DNA of 64,000 bases from Octopus sinensis (lineage: Eukaryota): NCBI RefSeq assembly GCF_006345805.1, contig NC_042997.1:111352001-111416000 (forward strand), written 5' to 3'. The position numbers and the translations under genes are program-made. The notes below the pieces were generated by a model, which was not told the DNA's origin, did no database searches, and saw only the letters and a list, made by a program, of their open reading frames with translations. This document shows positions 30,302-54,300 of the stretch, one piece after another (position 1 is the stretch's first letter; each line of letters begins with the position of its first letter).

Positions 30302-30479
30302 CCTTAAAACCTAACCATATTCCTAGCCCTAATGCGGGCATGTCACAGCGTGGACTAGGGATACTGTGGCAGACCACACACTAAAGTAGCACCCTTTATT
30401 TTATCAACCCCTTCTCCCCGGAAAGAATGAAAGGCAGAGTTGATCAGGGCGGATTTGAGAAAGTAGAAAGCAAACTAAA

Positions 30480-31118
30480 GCGTGACTGTTTAGTTCCCAA
30501 TCAGATGGTTCCAGGTTCAATATCACTACGCGGTACCTTGGGCAAATGATTATTGCTATAGCCTTAGGCCGACCAATGCCATGTGAGTAAATGAATTTGG
30601 CAGACGGAAACTGAAAGAAGCCCGTCTTATACATACATACTACATACATACATACATACATACATACATACATACATACATACATACATACATGTATGCA
30701 TGCATGCATAAGGAGCACTCCTTCGGTTATGACGACGAGAATCCCAACTGATAAAATCAACGGAACAACTTGCTCGTGATATTAACGTGCAATTGATGGA
30801 GCAATCCACAGACATGTGTACCCTTAATGTAGTTGTCAGGGAGGTTCTGTGTGACACAGAGTGTGACAAGGCTGGCCCTTTTTTGAAATACAGGTACAAC
30901 TCATTTTTGCCAACTGAGTGGACTGGAGCAACGTGAAATAAAGTGTCTTGCTCAAGGACACAACGCGTCACCGGGAATTGAACTCACGACCTTACATGCA
31001 TAATACATGTGTGTATGTATCTGTGTTTGTCTCCTACCACCGCTTGACAACCGATGTTGGTTTGTTTATGTCTCCGTGACATAGCGGTTCAGCCATAAGA
31101 CACTGATAGAATAAGTAG
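30480..31118 (+). mobile_element. SINE family A interrupted by (TACA)n and a minus-strand family R SINE (30710-30995, body2 + tail alpha)
   Basis: A head 30480-30625 and A tail 31005-31118 flank the insert. Confidence 0.8.
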
Positions 31119-31461: not shown

Positions 31462-32178
31462 TACACACCCTATATTTTCATCGGAACTTCAATATACGAG
31501 GTTGAGTCAAAAAGTAATGCCATTTTGTTTAGGACAGGTATAATTACCAACACAGGAACATGTATCATACATCAAAATGAAGCTGGTCCTCTCTGGATCA
31601 CATCCCTACTCAGCCATTTGCATGTTAATATCACGAGCAGGCTGTTCCGTCGAACGGATCAACTGCTACCCTCATCATCATAACCGACGAAGTGCCATTT
31701 TATATACATATATACATACACACATCACAATATTACCTGTAATCTATTGTGAACACACACACACACCGTTGGCAACACTCCTTGATCCTTTTATTGATTT
31801 CGTTTCACTTTCATCTTTTCTACAATTCGTTTCTTCTATTTGATAAAATAATTTTTTGTCTCACATCCACTGGACCCTATTTTATTTATACAAGAACCCG
31901 TCAATATTCTGCATAAATTATTAATATTTAATGGATGAAAAATACGATGGAACTTTGGGAGTTTTGCGCTCACCAGTATTGGAGAAGTGGAGTAAATATT
32001 GTAAGGAATCGATACAGTTACTTTGTCTTACAACTCTCACCTTGACGACCATTGTATCTCCAATACATTTGACATTCATCTGAATCAACATTATGTCTGT
32101 TAGTTCTATATTTAAGAGATGAGGGATTATGTACATTATTTACATTTGACGATATTCGTCCTCATCTTGTTTGTTATT

Positions 32179-32224
32179 AACACAACATTTCGGCTGATAT
32201 ACCCCCTAGCCTTCATCAGGTGTC
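32179..32224 (-). ncRNA. Minimal hammerhead in the Penelope inverted pLTR
   Basis: Minus strand GACAC-CTGATGA-A-GGCT-loop-AGCC-GAAATGTT|GTGTT; stems I and II pair; C15.2>T. Confidence 0.8.
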
Positions 32225-33130
32225 TTGGCTGCGCTATGTTGATGACACCTTTATACTCTGGCCCCACCAGGAAGATGTCCAAGTGCTGATAGATCATGTG
32301 AACTCAATAAAGCCATCCGTACAGTTCACAATGGAAAAGAAAAAAGACAATCAGCTAGCATTCCTGGGTGTATTAATAACACGCACCAAGTATGGATTCA
32401 AGACATCCGTATACCGCAAGCCGACCTTCACTGGACGATACCTCAACTTCAGTTCCCACCATCCACACAGTATAAAGAGAGGGATTGTTCAGTGCCTAAA
32501 ACATCGAGCAAAGAATATAAGTAGCGATCGTGATACACACCATCTATTAAGCAACAATTACCCCAAAAGCATACTCTCCACTCCAGTTATGAAGAAAAGA
32601 GAGGATGAAACCACTAAATTATCCATTGTCTGTCTACCCTATGTGAAAGGCCTCCCCGGAAAGATACAAAAGATATGTGGCCCATATGACATCAGATCAG
32701 TATTCAGGACTTCGCAAATATCTCCTTCAGGTAAAACCACCAATAGTAGGGAATATGGCCAAAAACTGCGTGTACTCCATCCCATGCAACTGTGGTAGGT
32801 TATACAAAGGCGAAACATGCTGCCCCGTCAAAATAAGGGTAGAGGAACATTGCAAAGCTGTGACACGGAGAGATATTGATAAATCGGGTATAGCTGATCA
32901 TGTATGGAAAAATGGAGACCACCTTCCCCTGTGGGATGAAGTTAAAATAATAGACAGAGAACACCACTGGAAAATACGAAAACTAAATGAAGCAGCACAT
33001 ATATTAGGACACAAGAACCTCCTAAGCAGACCGAGTGCAGATATGGGTAGCATATGGGAACTGGTATTAAGGAAGGATAGGAAAATATTAGATTTATAAG
33101 TCCTAAAAATTCACTCAATTATTGCCCACG

Positions 33131-33200
33131 GGCTTATGGCGTAGTGGTTAACAGCGTGGGCTACTAAACCTAAGATTCCGAGTTAGATTCCAAGCAGTGA
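33131..33200 (+). promoter_or_regulatory. tRNA-like internal Pol III promoter in the Penelope 3' region
   Basis: A-box TGGCGTAGTGG (33137-33147) and B-box-like GAGTTAGATTCC (33180-33191) at tRNA spacing. Confidence 0.65.
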
Positions 33201-33339
33201 CCTGAATAATAATAATGATAATAACATCGAAAGATACCTTAGGAATTAGAACTCAGGTTCGAAATTTCCCCAAGACACCTGATGAGGACAAATATCCGTC
33301 AAATGTAAATAATGTATTATGCCTGTCTACTACCATATA

Positions 33340-34616
33340 TTGGGTTGGCAACTAAGTTCCCGCCGTTTTTTTAAATTTAAATCTTTTAAAAAGTTTAATG
33401 AAAAATAACAACTAATTAATCAATAATGTATTCACCCTTGTTGTTTTGCAATTTCTTTCCAATGTTCAACAAGATTTTCAATACCTCGTTGGTAGAAATC
33501 ACCCGATTTCGACTCGAAAAATTGATCCAACCAAGCTCTCAATTCTGCATCAGTATTGAACGAAACTCCGTACATAGCATTTGAAAGAGATCGAAAGAAG
33601 TGGAAATCCGTTGGTACCAAATCAGGAGAGTACGGCGGGTGTGGCATCACTTCCCAGCCATGCGTTTTGAATGGCTTCCTTGGTCATATTGGCGATATGA
33701 GGGTGGGCGTAATTGTGCAGCAGAAGAGCTCCATGCTGCCGATTAGGTCTTTTCTCTTGAATAGCCGTGTCGAATCTTCCATCTGTTGAACATAGAGTTC
33801 CGCATTGACCGTTTGGTTCCGTTCAAGTAATTCGTAATGGATAATCCCTTCCCAGTCCCACCATACGCACAACATCGTTTTACGCGGATGAATATCTTGT
33901 TTCACGCGCGCTGTCGCTTGTTTACCGGGGCCAAGCCATTCCTTACGCTGCTTCATATTGATGTACAGGCACCATTTTTCGTTGCCAGTAACGATTCAGT
34001 AAAGAAATCGTTGCTTGTGTCCATGAGTTGAGCGGTGACGAGCAAGCAAACCAGTGGAGACGGTGGCTCGTTGATTTTTGTTGTTATCACTTAAAGCATG
34101 CGGAACCTATGCTCCACACTTCTGAACCTTTCCCATCGAGTGAAGATGCTTCTCTTTAGCAGTGTGGGAGCATTCCATTTTCTCTGCCAGTTCCCTTGTT
34201 GTTTGACGAGAATTTTCGTGCAAAAGTTGATTTAATCGCTCTTCATCGAACTCAACTGGACAGTCAGAACGAGGTGCGCTTTTGAGGTCAAAATTTTCAT
34301 TTTCGAACTTGGTATACCAATCACGAGCGGTTCTTTCAGCTATGGCACCCTCTCCATACACAGCACAAATGTCGCAAGCAGCTTTTGCGGCCTTAGAAGC
34401 TTGATTAAAAGCAAAAAGGAGGTGTCGAAAATGCTCGTTTTTCTTAACTTGACATTCCATTTTAATGATCTGAAAATAAACAAAAATTAAGTAAAATTAA
34501 CAAGAAAAAAAAAAAGATTCTAAAACGATTCAAAAATAGAATTCTTGAAAAAAAGATTCCAAAATTTAAAAACTCAATAAATTTTTTAAAAAACGGCGGG
34601 AACTTAGTTGCCAACC

Positions 34617-34619
<3 letters not shown>
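33340..34619 (-). mobile_element. Full-length (about 1.28 kb) decayed mariner (DD34D) transposon
   Basis: TIR of about 30 bp TTGGGTTGGCAACTAAGTTCCCGCCGTTTT at both ends with TA flanks; HTH N-terminus, (W)VPHAL, MLCVWWDWEG, HPPYSPDLVPTD; stops and frameshifts. Confidence 0.96.
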
Positions 34620-34650
<31 letters not shown>

Positions 34651-34653
<3 letters not shown>

Positions 34654-34814
34654 CGCATGAGTGGCTGTGTGGTAGCTTGCTAACCAACCACATGGTTCCG
34701 GGTTCAGTCCCACTGCGTGGCATCTTGGGCAAGTGTCTTCTACTATAGCCCCGGGCCGACCAATGCCTTGTGTGTGGATTTGGTAGACGGAAACTGAAAG
34801 ACGCCTGTCGTATG

Positions 34815-34845
<31 letters not shown>

Positions 34846-35050
34846 ATGTGTTTGTGTTTGTCCCCCTAGCATTGCTTGACAACCGATGCTAGTGTGTTTA
34901 CGTCCCCGTCACTTAGCGGTTCGGCAAAAGAGACCGATAGAATAAGTAGTGGGCTTACAAAGAATAAATCCCGGGGTCGATTTGCTCGACTAAAGGCGGT
35001 GCTCCAGCATGGCCGCAGTCAAATGACTGAAACAAGTAAAAGAGTAAAAG
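34651..35050 (+). mobile_element. Full-length SINE family A
   Basis: Near-consensus copy flanked by (TA)n. Confidence 0.92.
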
Positions 35051-45031: not shown

Positions 45032-45754
45032 TATATGTTTAAAATCTTGTACCTACATTTTCCAACCTTTTATTTCCTGATAGTTCCAGACTAGAATAGA
45101 ACTAACAACCTTTACTTTTAAACTAAAGACAGAAATATCCATATTTAGGGAACTACATACTTGTTTTATAAAAGGGATTTGACCAAATGGCTCACTCTCT
45201 TAGAGGCGGTATCATAGCCAAGGAAGATTATCCCAAGTGTGGTTATAGCTAATTGAAAACTATTTTGCTTTATCGGGTTCTGAAATAAAAACCTTTTCCA
45301 GTGGCGGCTCGAGTATAGAAACTGCATCACCCCCTATTTCCACTCAATATTATCGATAACATTTGATATAATGAGTCCTTTTTTCTTTAATTCTGTCTTT
45401 ATACTTGTACATTATATCATCCTTAAGCTTAATGTCAGTAGCCATCCCCTAGTTTCTGAAAAAAATACAAAAATCCTTGTATAGAACTGTGCACTTCACA
45501 GTTCCAGCAACACAGTGTTTGGCTAGTGTGAAGATAGGAAGCTTCACACTAGGGAAAGAGAGCACTCTGTAAACGACAGGGCCGGGTGAAAGGTAGTGTT
45601 TCTTTTAGACTCTGCGTGTGTTATACTTAAAAAAACAAGTTTATATTCTTGAATGAGAAAAAGTGTAGAATTAGATTATTATCCTGCTTCCAGCTTCAGT
45701 CTTGCTGACAGGATTTGAAAAAAAAGAGCATATCTCCCACCCCTTATTTTGTGA

Positions 45755-47549
45755 TGCAGAGATGCTCAAAATATCTGGTAGTGTCGGCTATAGCCTAGTC
45801 ACCCGTATAGTTAACCAGGTGATACACGAAGGAGTCATACCCAATGACTGGTGTAGCAGCATAATAGACAACTGCTACAAAGGTAAAGGTGACACCCTAC
45901 ATACAAATAATTACAGAGGTATCAAGCTGTTGGATCAGGTAATGAAGGTTACGGAGAGGGTCATAGCCCAACTAATTAGAGAGGGAGATAGTTTAGATGA
46001 GATGCAGTTTGGGTTCATGCCAGGGAAAAGCACCACTGATGCCATATTCCTGGTAAGACAGCTGCAGGAGAAATATCTAGCCAAAGATAAGCCCCTGTAC
46101 CTGGCTTTCATTGACATGGAGAGAGCCTTCGACAGGGTCCCCCGATCCCTTATCTGGTGGTCAATGAGGAAACTAGGGATAGATGAATGGTTTGTGAGAG
46201 CTGTGCAAGCCATGTACAGGGACGCTGCTAGTAAGGTGAGGGTTGGCAACAAGTACAGTGAAGAATTCCGGGTAGAGATTAGGGTCCACCAAGGCTCAGT
46301 CCTCAGCCCCCTCCTATTTATCGTAGTCCTCCAGGCAATAACGGAGGAATTCAAGACAGGATGCCCCTGGGAGCTCCTCTTCGCTGATGACCTTGCTCTA
46401 ATTGCTGAGTCACTATCGGAACTGGAGAAGTTTCAGGTGTGGCAGCAAGGATTAGAATCAAAGGGCCTTAGAGTCAACCTAGCTAAAACCAAAGTCCTAA
46501 TAAGTAGGAAGGTAGACAAGTCACAAACGCCTTCAGGTAGATGGCCTTGCTCGATCTGTAGAAAAGGCATAGGTAGAAACTCTGTAAGATGCACCAAGTG
46601 TAAGCTTATGGACACATAAGAGGTGCAGCAATGTCAAGGGAAGGCTAACTAGGAAGATAGTTTTTTGTATGTGGCAGATGCTCGGGAGCATTAACCTCTG
46701 AAAATCTGCAGAAAACAACTTCCGTCACTTTCCAGGGAGAAAAACTAGAAATAGTTGATAGCTTCCATTACCTAGGTGACCAAGTCAGTAGCGGGGGTGG
46801 GTGTGTTGAAAGTGTAACTGCTAGAGTAAGAATAGCCTGGGCAAAGTTCAAAGTGCTCTTACCTCTGCTAGGGACAAAAGGCCTCTCGCTCAGAGTAAAT
46901 GGCAGACTGTATGACGCATGTGTACGAACAGCCATGCTACATGGCAGTGAAACATGGGCCGTGACTGCTGAGGATATGCGTAAGCTTGCAAGAAATGAAG
47001 CCAGTATGCTCCGATGGATGTGTAATGTCAATGTTCATACTCGACAGAATGTAAGTACCTTGTGAGAGAAGTTGGACCTAAGAAGCATCAGTTATCATGT
47101 GCAAGAGAGACGTTTGCGCTGGTATGGTCATGTGGTGAGAATGGATGAAGATAGTTGTGTGAAAAAGTGCCACACCCTAGCGGTTGAGGGAACCTGTGGA
47201 AGAGGTAGACCCAGGAAAACCTGGGATGAGGTGGTGAAGCACGACATTCGAACTTTAGGTCTTACTGAAGAAATGACTAGAGACCGAGACCTTTGGAAGT
47301 ATACTGTGCGTGAGAAGACCCGGCAGGACAAGTGAGACCATAACCCATGGCCTCAGTCCACTTATGCATACCTTTCCTTCTTGGGACACAAAACTCTACT
47401 TGTGAAGACCTGTTGAGACAAGTGAAAATCAAAATCAAACCAAAATTGATCAACATCAATGGAAATTGTAGCTGTGATACAGACCCCAGTTGCACCGTCC
47501 AACCCATGCCAGCATGGAAAGCGGGGGCTAAACGCTGATGATGATGATG
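45755..47549 (+). mobile_element. 5'-truncated RTE-clade LINE (RT domain + shortened 3' UTR)
   Basis: NYRGIKLL, QFGF, AFIDMERAFD, VHQGSVLSP, LFADD motifs; (GAT)n tail; frameshifts and stops. Confidence 0.96.
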
Positions 47550-51270: not shown

Positions 51271-51345
51271 ATGAAGTCCCTTGCTCATGAGCAACAAATT
51301 GTTTTCGTCTACCGAATTTCACTTAAAGGAATTTAAGACATGGGG

Positions 51346-54300
51346 GCATGCAAGAAATAAGGTGGAGAGGAGGATCAGCTAGGTTCCTCACAGGCAAGGA
51401 ACGCAGGTACAAGATTTTCTGGGCAGGGAACACTGACGGGGTTGGTGGCGTGGGTATACTTATCGCTGAGAAATGGGTAGATAAAGTAATTGAGGTAATC
51501 AGAGTAAGTGACAGAATACTTAAGATTAGATTAGTGCTTCATCATAGTTTAGCAACCATTATATCAGCCTATGCTCCTCAGTCGGGGCTACCCGATGGAC
51601 AGAAAGACCGATTCTATGACACTCTACTGCAGACTACCTCATTGACGAACGACAGAGACCTTATCTTTGTGGCTGGTGACTTCAATGGTCACGTTGGACG
51701 ACATGCTGGGGGCTTCCATGGCGTACATGGAGGCTATGGCTCCCGCAACGAGGAGGGAACCAGGCTGCTGGAGTTCTGCGATGCAAATAATCTTCTGATT
51801 TGCAACACTAACTTCAGGAAACCTACCAGCCACCTAGTCACTTACCAATCGGGCCAACATACCAGCCAAATTGACTACATCCTTACAAGGCAAAGGGAGA
51901 GATGGCTGCTTATAAATGCCAAAACCTTCCCAGGTGAAGAATGTACCCCACAACATAGACTGGTAGTTAGTGACTTTAGGATCAGGACTAGGAGGACAAC
52001 CAGAAGACGACAAATATGGAGAAGAAGGATCTGGAAGCTTAAAGATCCTGCAAATGGACAGAGATTTAGGGACATATTACTTGAAGCCTCTGACGAAGTA
52101 GAAGGGGATAGAGCATCACAGGGGGTAGAAGACAGCTGGACGTTTCTAAGGGACAACCTGCTGAGAGCCACTGACCAGATCTGTGGCTGGTGCAAAGTCC
52201 CCTCTCGACCTAGAATAACGTGGTGGTGGAACAATATTGTAGACAGGGCTATTAGAGAAAAGAGACAGGCTTGGAAGGTCTGGAAAAATGGGGGTAGCAG
52301 GGAATTGTATCAGACTGCCAAAAAGAAGCTAGGAGACAGGTTTATTTAGCCAGAGGGGAAGCAGATAAGAAAAAATTTGCCAATGTTCTGCGCCGTGAGG
52401 ACCAAAGACTGGAGGTGTTTCGTGTTGCAAGACAGTGTGTGAGAGAGAATCGTGATGTGGTAGGAGAGAAGTGTGTTCGCATGGAAGATGGTTCACTTGC
52501 GCTAAATGAGGATGCAAAGAGAGAGGTTTGGAGATGCCACTATGAAAGGTTGCAGAATGAAGAAAATGAATGGGATAAAGAGAGTCTGCCCGAATGTTGA
52601 CCCAACAGAGGGACCAGCTATCCGAGTTGATAGTTCTGTGGTAGCTAAGGCAATTAGAAGCATGAAGACAGGGAAAGCCCCAGGCCCATCAGGAATCACT
52701 GCAGAGATGCTCAAAATGTCTGGTAGTGTCGGCTATAGCCTAGTCACCCATATAGTTAATCAGGTGATACACAAAGGGGTCATACCCAATGACTGGTGTA
52801 GCAGTATAATAGTCAACTGCTACAAAGGTAAAGGTGATGCCCTAGACACAAATAACTACAGAGGTATCAAGCTGTTGGACCAGGTGATGAAGGTTACGGA
52901 GAGGGTCATAGCCCAACTAATTAGAGAGAGAGTTAGTTTAGATGAGATGCAGTTTGGGTTTGTGCCAGGGAAAAGTACTACTGATGCTATATTCCTGGTA
53001 AGGCAGCTGCAGGAGAAATACCTAGCCAAAGATAAGCCCCTGTACCTGGCTTTTGTTGACATGGAGAAAGCCTTCGACAGGGTCCCCGATCCCTTATCTG
53101 GTGGGCAATGAGAAAACTAGGGATAGATGAATGGTTAGTGAGAGCTGTGCGGGCCATGTATAGGGACGCCGCTAGTAGGGTGAGGGTTGGAAATGAGTAT
53201 AGTGAAGAATTCCGGGTAGAGGTAGGGGTCCACCAAGGCTCAGTACTCAGCCCCCTCCTATTTATCATAGTCCTCCAGGCAATAACGGAGGAATTCAAGA
53301 CAGGATGCCCTTGGGAGCTCCTCTATGCTGATGACCTTGCTCTAATTGCTGAGTCGCTATCAGAACTGGAGGAGAAGTTTCAGGTGTGGAAACAAGGATT
53401 AGAATCGAAGGGCCTCAGAGTCAATCTAGCTAAAACCAAAGTCGTAATCAGTAGGAAGGTAGACAAATCACAAACACCTTCAGGTAGATGGCCCTGCTCG
53501 ATCTGTAGAAAAGGTGTAGGTAGAAACTCTATAAGATGCACCAAGTGTAAGCTATGGACACATAAGAGGTGCAGCAATGTCAAAGGAAGGCTAACTAGGA
53601 AGATGGTTTTTGTATGTGGCAGATGCTCAGGAACAATAAACACTGAAAATGCTCTGAGACCAACTTCCGTCACTTTCCAGGGAGAAAACTAGAAATAGTT
53701 GATAGTTTCCGTTACCTAGGTGACCAAGTCAGCAGCGGGGGCGGGTGTGCTGAAAGTGTAACTGCTAGAGTAAGAATAGCTTGGGCAAAGTTCAGAGAGC
53801 TCTTACCTCTGCTGGTGACAAAAGGCCTCTCGCACAGAGTGAAAGGCAGACTGTATGATGCGTGTGTACGAACAGCCATGCTACATGGCAGTGAAACATG
53901 GGCCGTGACTGCTGAGGATATGCGTAAGCTCGCTAGAAATGAAGCCAGTATGCTCCGATGGATGTGTAATGCCGGTACTCACACTCGGCAGAGTGTAAGT
54001 ACCTTGAGAGAAAAGCTGGACCTAAGAAGCATCAGTTGTGGTGTGCAAGAGAGACGTTTGCGCTGGTATGGTCATGTGGCGAGAATGGATGAAGATAGTT
54101 GTGTGAAAAAGAGCCACACCCTAGCGGTTGAGGGAACCTGTGGAAGAGGCAGACCCAGGAAAACCTGGGACGAGGTGGTGAAGCACGACCTTCGAACTTT
54201 AGGTCTCACTGAGGAAATGACTAGAGACCGAGACCTCTGGAAGTGTGCTGTGCACGAGAAGACCCGGCAGGACAAGTGAGTCCACAACCCGTGGCCTTCT

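Follow-up and report, generated by a model that had tools for sequence, protein, structure and literature searches.

Autonomous non-LTR retrotransposons are usually Pol II transcripts and SINEs Pol III transcripts, a division outlined in PMC10886601. In the Penelope element of D. virilis the promoter lies in the pseudo-LTR and is described as TATA-less, internal like that of LINEs, and associated with an intron (PMC2377424). For Anolis Poseidon, in vitro work is reported in which RT primes internally on uncleaved RNA as its main substrate; the ORF of that element starts in the hammerhead, and RT initiates at two sites that define the tail (PMC11167929). The element examined here resembles D. 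virilis Penelope and Anolis PAc, as far as they are described in PMC2377424 and PMC11167929, in its single RT and C-terminal GIY-YIG ORF, its pseudo-LTRs, the inverted 5'-truncated partner, the one-sided tail, two groups of 3' ends, an ORF start that lies over a minimal hammerhead, and the position of the putative promoter in the pseudo-LTR. Unlike those two elements as described, it has a 3' UTR that consists of a tRNA-Arg head and an (AAT)n tract, and its sense strand is free of TTTT.

Both halves of this arrangement are already known from other elements: Schistosoma Sm-alpha combines a Pol III promoter with a hammerhead, and Cassandra, Helenus and Ajax have small-RNA genes built into their terminal repeats. 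In Sm-alpha and Sj-alpha a tRNA-related Pol III promoter is followed by a hammerhead, as here; these elements are described as non-coding and often tandem, with canonical hammerheads that free monomers (PMC6765202, PMC2770079), whereas the present cassette forms the terminal repeat of a predicted autonomous element, its ribozyme is protein-coding and the ribozyme cut does not coincide with the ends of copies. Cassandra, Helenus and Ajax likewise carry a small-RNA gene (tRNA or 5S) inside a retroelement terminal repeat but are presented as non-autonomous LTR elements (PMC10886601), whereas the carrier here is an ORF-bearing Penelope-like element (PLE). Metazoan non-LTR retrozymes (PMC7761336) and non-autonomous Chlamys such as MRC1 (PMC8557442) are, like the short copies described below, short and non-coding, and their movement is attributed to PLE proteins; the accounts of them in these two sources mention no tRNA promoter, and the short copies here are identical to their partner's pseudo-LTR. 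Full-text searches, mostly at abstract level and with supplements, Repbase and SINEBase outside their scope, returned no PLE with a tRNA-derived pseudo-LTR and no retrotransposon mRNA made by Pol III.

The octopus SINEs OR1 and OR2, described by Ohshima and Okada in 1994, are reportedly of tRNA-Arg origin and, compared by description only, probably share their type of tRNA head and their host group with the present family. They are cited as CORE-SINEs (PMC4758252, PMC4824008). Between the tRNA part and the start codon of the PLE there are about 40 nt, mostly AAT, which leaves no room for the 60-bp CORE of SINEs of the OR1/OR2 type.

Results and Discussion

The stretch of Octopus sinensis DNA that was analysed (the window, 64,000 nt) contains a single insertion at 32102-33315, made up of an inverted pseudo-LTR piece, a truncated ORF and a 3' pseudo-LTR. 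An 11-bp TSD flanks it on both sides, ATTATGTCTGT at 32090..32100 and ATTATGCCTGT at 33316..33326 (both on the plus strand, 10/11 identical); the preliminary description had seen no TSD around the tRNA-like segment alone, and indeed the duplication encloses the insertion as a whole. The inverted piece (32102..32228, minus strand) is a 5'-truncated pseudo-LTR copy of 127 nt with a one-sided tail, which forms inverted arms, is 94% identical to family unit positions 148-275 and holds a near-intact minimal type I hammerhead (CTGATGA at 32219-32213 and GAAA at 32191-32188, minus strand). It adjoins a Penelope-type ORF on the plus strand (32226..33099, 91% identical to the family unit), which is 5'-truncated and frameshifted, covers RT from the YVDD motif, the thumb and the predicted GIY-YIG endonuclease, contains no TTTT on its plus strand and ends with the TAA at 33097-33099.

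Downstream of this stop codon, and also on the plus strand, a spacer with an imperfect hairpin (33113..33139) overlaps a tRNA-Arg(ACG)-derived head (33130..33203). The head contains an A box (TGGCGTAGTGG, 33137-33147) and a B-box-like motif (GTTAGATTCC, 33182-33191), in which the invariant C is replaced by A at 33185 in the window copy, and is followed by an (AAT)n tract at 33205-33225, whose length varies among copies from 12 to about 500 nt. Both boxes and the tract had been noted beforehand behind the stop at 33099 and are present as claimed. The start codon position of the family ORF lies inside the pseudo-LTR at 33245..33247, where the window copy reads ATT. The hammerhead that had been placed at 33279 proved to be a remnant, consisting of the 5' strand of helix I and CTGATGA (33274..33285); the 51 nt deleted after 33285, which are flanked by two GATGA microhomologies, comprised helix II, the GAAA and the cleavage site, and the remaining 33286..33315 is the 3' end of the pseudo-LTR without a tail. 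As judged from its sequence, the window copy is dead, with a truncated and frameshifted ORF, a mutated B box and start codon and a deleted ribozyme. The 51-nt deletion recurs in copy L022 and in contigs of two other organisms (joint 1166-1218), which is consistent with repeated template slippage at GATGA; copy L145 was left out of this alignment, since its inverted partner had been aligned.

The tRNA origin of the head was assessed with a joint A and B box score trained on tRNA genes of the same genome. The window scores 19.2 bits, and 200 shuffles of the region average -0.8 and do not exceed 11.2; the family majority, in which the consensus of both boxes is perfect and the acceptor and anticodon arms have drifted, reaches 25.2, compared with a median of 33.2 for genuine tRNA genes. 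The 3' regions of 39 other Penelope-like ORFs, scored as controls, all stay below the window's 19.2 bits, the best of them at 16.8. When aligned with tRNA genes of the genome, the head majority is identical to tRNA-Arg(ACG) at 52/73 positions (score 71; shuffle maximum 40.5) and to tRNA-Arg(TCG) at 51/75, and nine other sampled tRNA types score 36-60, in keeping with the earlier suggestion of a captured tRNA head. The 3' strand of the acceptor has diverged, and the head does not show the cloverleaf with paired acceptor stem of a functional tRNA; ARAGORN and Rfam gave no match in the window because the head is too drifted. At G000:C2:3121896-3150439, tRNA-Arg(ACG) genes are repeated in tandem by the dozen, at a spacing of ~206 bp, and this array is a possible source of the captured head.

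Exact matches in the genome number 3,847 for a 21-mer of the head, 575 for a 20-mer of the ORF end and 11,407 for a 21-mer of the 3' end. Scaling by the rate of exact matches in fetched copies (16/57 for the head, 12/53 for the ORF end and 60/151 for the 3' end) yields estimates of roughly 14,000 heads, 2,500 ORF ends and 29,000 3' ends. The head directly follows the stop codon in 26/29 other loci picked by ORF sequence alone; two of the remaining three end before the stop and one is interrupted, and none has a different sequence at this place. Contigs that bridge ORF and head were found in three further organisms, and reads of a fourth cover both. The preliminary description had weighed the chance that only the window copy carries the segment, as a one-off truncated SINE insertion. 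The thousands of exact head matches, the contiguity at ORF-selected loci and the bridging contigs of the other three organisms refute this reading, which is vanishingly improbable. By these comparisons the head is tRNA-derived and fixed in the family. Annotation pipelines would divide the ~14,000 head-bearing copies per genome into 'SINE' and 'Penelope', although they belong to one family.

The full-length unit of the family spans 2,928 nt and comprises the head, (AAT)n, an ATG, a minimal hammerhead, a tail, the RT and GIY-YIG ORF, and the pseudo-LTR again. A direct pseudo-LTR precedes those copies that reach the 5' end of the ORF. This upstream repeat starts at the head in L240, L248, L258 and L300 and is cut inside the pseudo-LTR in eight others; L304 extends further upstream, with its head deleted. 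The ATG at nt 123, downstream of (AAT)n and some 35 nt short of the ribozyme core, opens a frame of 835 codons that runs through ribozyme and tail, and an ATG occupies the family start position in 182/201 counted segments. In a real copy, L247, the frame is open from the pseudo-LTR ATG into the ORF, and a 9-nt length variant keeps the frame; the peptide encoded by the ribozyme is preserved in a relative at 57% identity (P0005).

The 835-aa majority frame holds DKG, YVDD and VYSIPCSCGRLYKGET, and a real, longer copy matches PF00078 (RT) with E=3e-10. Identity to related proteins is 40-76%; across the RT core, an Anolis protein is 44% identical. Pfam gave no GIY-YIG match in the family protein, and the predicted GIY-YIG assignment rests on the motif together with PF01541 in some homologs; no extra CxxC linker motif was seen in the ORF translations of the window. 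The motifs and anatomy, namely a single ORF that joins RT to a C-terminal GIY-YIG domain, direct or inverted pseudo-LTRs and a one-sided tail, suggest an EN+ Penelope-like retrotransposon of the Penelope/Poseidon type. The majority ribozyme folds with a 5-bp helix I, a 6-bp helix II, a CUGAUGA/GAAA core and an AACGUU palindrome, and this predicted fold matches the minimal type I architecture, with a palindromic helix III, in the pseudo-LTR; by a strict pattern the hammerhead is complete in 8/71 copies. The genome also contains five other Penelope-like families (L446-L481), several of which retain intact frames of 500-800 codons. In the 17 copies of these families that were listed, the 600 nt following the longest frame contain no canonical hammerhead.

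The ends of individual copies were analysed in the first 90 of the 3,847 head matches in genome order, from which four duplicates (L103, L113, L115 and L116) were removed to leave 86. Only 22 of these copies are linked to the ORF; the other 64, about three quarters, start at or within the head and lack the ORF, so that copies combining head and hammerhead without an ORF, a class considered in the preliminary description, are abundant. Ungapped extension places 12/86 5' ends on the base that matches 33123 and 36 within the nine bases up to the tRNA start; the seven bases upstream of these hold 2 ends, and a further 21 bases hold none (36 vs 2, P=2e-7). This sharp edge, 6-7 nt before the tRNA, corresponds to a pile-up of short-copy 5' ends at 33123-33124 in the window, the presumed Pol III start site. 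TSD-like pairs were found in 8/24 simple copies (chance 18/184), and five of the eight put the start 1-7 nt before the tRNA. An inverted copy lies directly upstream of 35/70 short copies, and partners are mostly inverted and do not form head-to-tail arrays.

A hairpin coincides with this edge (TGCCC-AC-GGGCA, 5 bp, -5.2 kcal/mol), its outer base being the peak end position, and together with the inverted copies on half of the short copies it means that fold-back could also produce the edge. The tRNA piece might accordingly have been captured once into the 3' UTR with no use as a promoter, the 5' pile-up reflecting RT stalling or cDNA fold-back at the hairpin before the head, and inverted 5' ends are described as typical of Penelope-like elements (PMC8557442). 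We regard this explanation as quite unlikely: inversion-free copies start at the same place, five of the eight with TSD-like pairs having their bounds at -7 to -1; the ends thin out at once on the upstream side, as they would at the end of an RNA; and the perfect boxes and the lack of TTTT would be left unexplained.

In 74/86 copies the 3' end lies at profile positions 1176-1209; the ends form two groups, 50-85 nt beyond the cleavage site, and no copy ends within 1120-1135 around the ribozyme cut (near 1126). This distribution bears on the earlier proposal that the mobile or functional unit is an RNA of about 190 nt, started by Pol III and terminated by the ribozyme. The distance from the presumed start to the cleavage site is indeed ~190 nt in the majority, and the ribozyme has the minimal type I architecture (as presented in PMC4209133). 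Since no copy ends at the ribozyme cut, a cut RNA of 190 nt is not the template; cleavage would also part the ATG from the ORF, and uncleaved RNA is reported as the main substrate for Anolis Poseidon (PMC11167929). We consider such a unit very improbable. The ribozyme-set unit ends and head-to-tail arrays of Sm-alpha-like elements and retrozymes are not a feature of this family. Among ORF-linked copies 19/22 run past the ribozyme, which, together with the extension of L304 beyond the head position, indicates that multimeric or circular templates must also have existed.

Short copies (90 segments) and long copies (74 segments) have an identical majority over head and pseudo-LTR and a divergence of 5.6% each, thus indicating that the short copies do not constitute a separate SINE lineage, and the separate SINE-like derivative that had been envisaged does not find support. 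No diagnostic substitution is fixed between the two groups, and the differences seen are CpG decay and deletions tied to locus selection. As in a SINE, a tRNA-derived head with A and B boxes stands at the 5' end; unlike a SINE, which forms a lineage distinct from its partner and has only the 3' tail in common with it, these copies carry a head that belongs to the autonomous element itself. The tail is present in 33/55 short vs 7/19 long copies (raw counts, on which no conclusion is based). A longer (AAT)n tract was considered as the mark of a SINE subfamily and rejected (medians 30 and 36 nt, P=0.2). The tract has grown to several hundred bases in L063, L177 and L143, and the family thereby seeds microsatellites.

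A run of TTTT is the terminator of Pol III. TTTT or a longer run follows 57/58 sampled tRNA genes of this genome, with exactly four T in 32 of them. The majority sense strand of the family has no TTTT in 2,928 nt, and decayed family copies have 28 in 67 kb (0.35-0.42 per kb). The genome's five other Penelope-like families, whose T content is similar (19-26%), contain 173 TTTT runs in 68,985 nt from 36 copies (1.86-3.52 per kb); their rates predict about 5-9 runs per ORF (Poisson P0 0.002, or 0.009 at the lowest rate), in a comparison of a majority sequence with single copies that is not strictly like for like. Related ORFs from metagenome contigs (80 ORFs, 52 families) have a median of 3.5 TTTT per kb, and none of 52 such ORFs of at least 1.5 kb is free of it. 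TTTT occurs in 21/25 control 3' UTRs and is absent from the 3' UTR of the head-bearing family.

Within the family, null models give P=0.028 (synonymous-codon shuffle), 0.06 (order-1 Markov) and 0.2 (order-2 Markov); a null with equal codon usage (P=0.0007) was set aside because it over-predicted A runs too. LINE segments of the genome are TTTT-poor as well (0.64 per kb in 10 segments), with 4 runs in 3.9 kb in the window, where two copies that we take to be RTE-like LINEs (45675-46619 and 51327-54279, with long, partly open frames) served as a control. The headless control ORF L340 has one TTTT run in 2.3 kb (0.43 per kb), and TTTT is absent from two short controls. The TTTT depletion is therefore a good but not conclusive signal.

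The head forms the fixed front end of the pseudo-LTR, and we think it rather probable that an autonomous element of Penelope type is transcribed by Pol III, ORF included, with stubs arising from internally primed reverse transcription. A tRNA-Arg fragment would have been captured where relatives typically have a T-rich 3' UTR, and since this UTR also acts as promoter for the copy downstream of it (PMC2377424), the element would thereby have come under Pol III. Transcription would start at the G that matches 33124 and read through the ORF because no terminator is present, and translation of this uncapped RNA would begin at the ATG that follows the (AAT)n leader. On uncleaved RNA, RT would prime internally at the junction of pseudo-LTR and ORF. 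Priming at the first junction would copy ~280 nt back to the start site and could have produced roughly 10,000 SINE-like stubs, often with fold-back; as this copying runs to the 5' end of the transcript, we infer that the 5' pile-up marks the start site. Priming at the downstream junction would give ORF-bearing copies, and stubs in which both boxes survive may in turn be transcribed again and mobilised in trans.

Alternatively, the Pol III promoter could work for the short copies only, as a SINE moved by a Penelope RT, with the coding RNA made by Pol II from its own or a host promoter and the lack of TTTT due to chance or another cause. The absence of the ORF from three quarters of the head-bearing copies, the retention of both boxes in 26/86, the P values of merely 0.03-0.2 from the within-family nulls and the precedent of Pol III hammerhead SINEs in Schistosoma (as reported in PMC6765202) are all compatible with this explanation, which we hold to be unlikely, if still the most credible of the alternatives. 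Short and long copies differ neither in diagnostic substitutions nor in age, full-length copies begin at the head, and all five other Penelope-like families of the genome have TTTT runs. Nor do the splice joints listed from RNA-seq of a related organism include one for an intron between head and ribozyme of the kind known from D. virilis Penelope, which also speaks against a coding RNA made in this separate way. These reads, three unstranded runs from one study, reveal neither start nor end sites and weigh neither for nor against Pol III use; contig depths were left out of the evidence.

Transcription of the whole element by Pol III fits into a broader evolutionary scenario, to which we give about an even chance on the present sequence comparisons. 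An autonomous protein-coding retrotransposon would have switched to Pol III when its T-rich 3' UTR and promoter were replaced by a tRNA-Arg fragment; TTTT would have been purged from 2.9 kb, translation of the uncapped RNA would run through the element's own ribozyme, and the element would shed SINE-like stubs from its own 5' end. If true, a single unit would combine a SINE with its LINE-like partner and represent a route of SINE birth opposite to the usual fusion of a tRNA with a LINE tail. Control of a Penelope-like element by a tRNA promoter would also break the division between Pol II and Pol III elements and mean that an uncapped Pol III RNA is translated in nature. With genome data, the 5' edge of the copies supports the internal-priming model, which has been demonstrated in vitro for one PLE, and it supplies a defined start site for testing the role of the minimal hammerhead.

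The search of viral contigs found no relative of the family. Among named proteins, those of the barnacle Amphibalanus amphitrite (P0007 cluster) are the closest relatives, at about 60% identity, far above the roughly 30% of the other Penelope-like families of the genome; the closeness to A. amphitrite hints at horizontal transfer into the host lineage.

Several further repeats adjoin the locus. The segment at 33335-34624, which begins 19 nt past the Penelope element and has 41-nt terminal inverted repeats and transposase-like frames on the minus strand, is presumably a decayed DNA transposon of Tc1/mariner type. Additional abundant SINE-like repeats, which we take to resemble octopus SINEs, flank the locus at 34653-35000 and 30420-31110.
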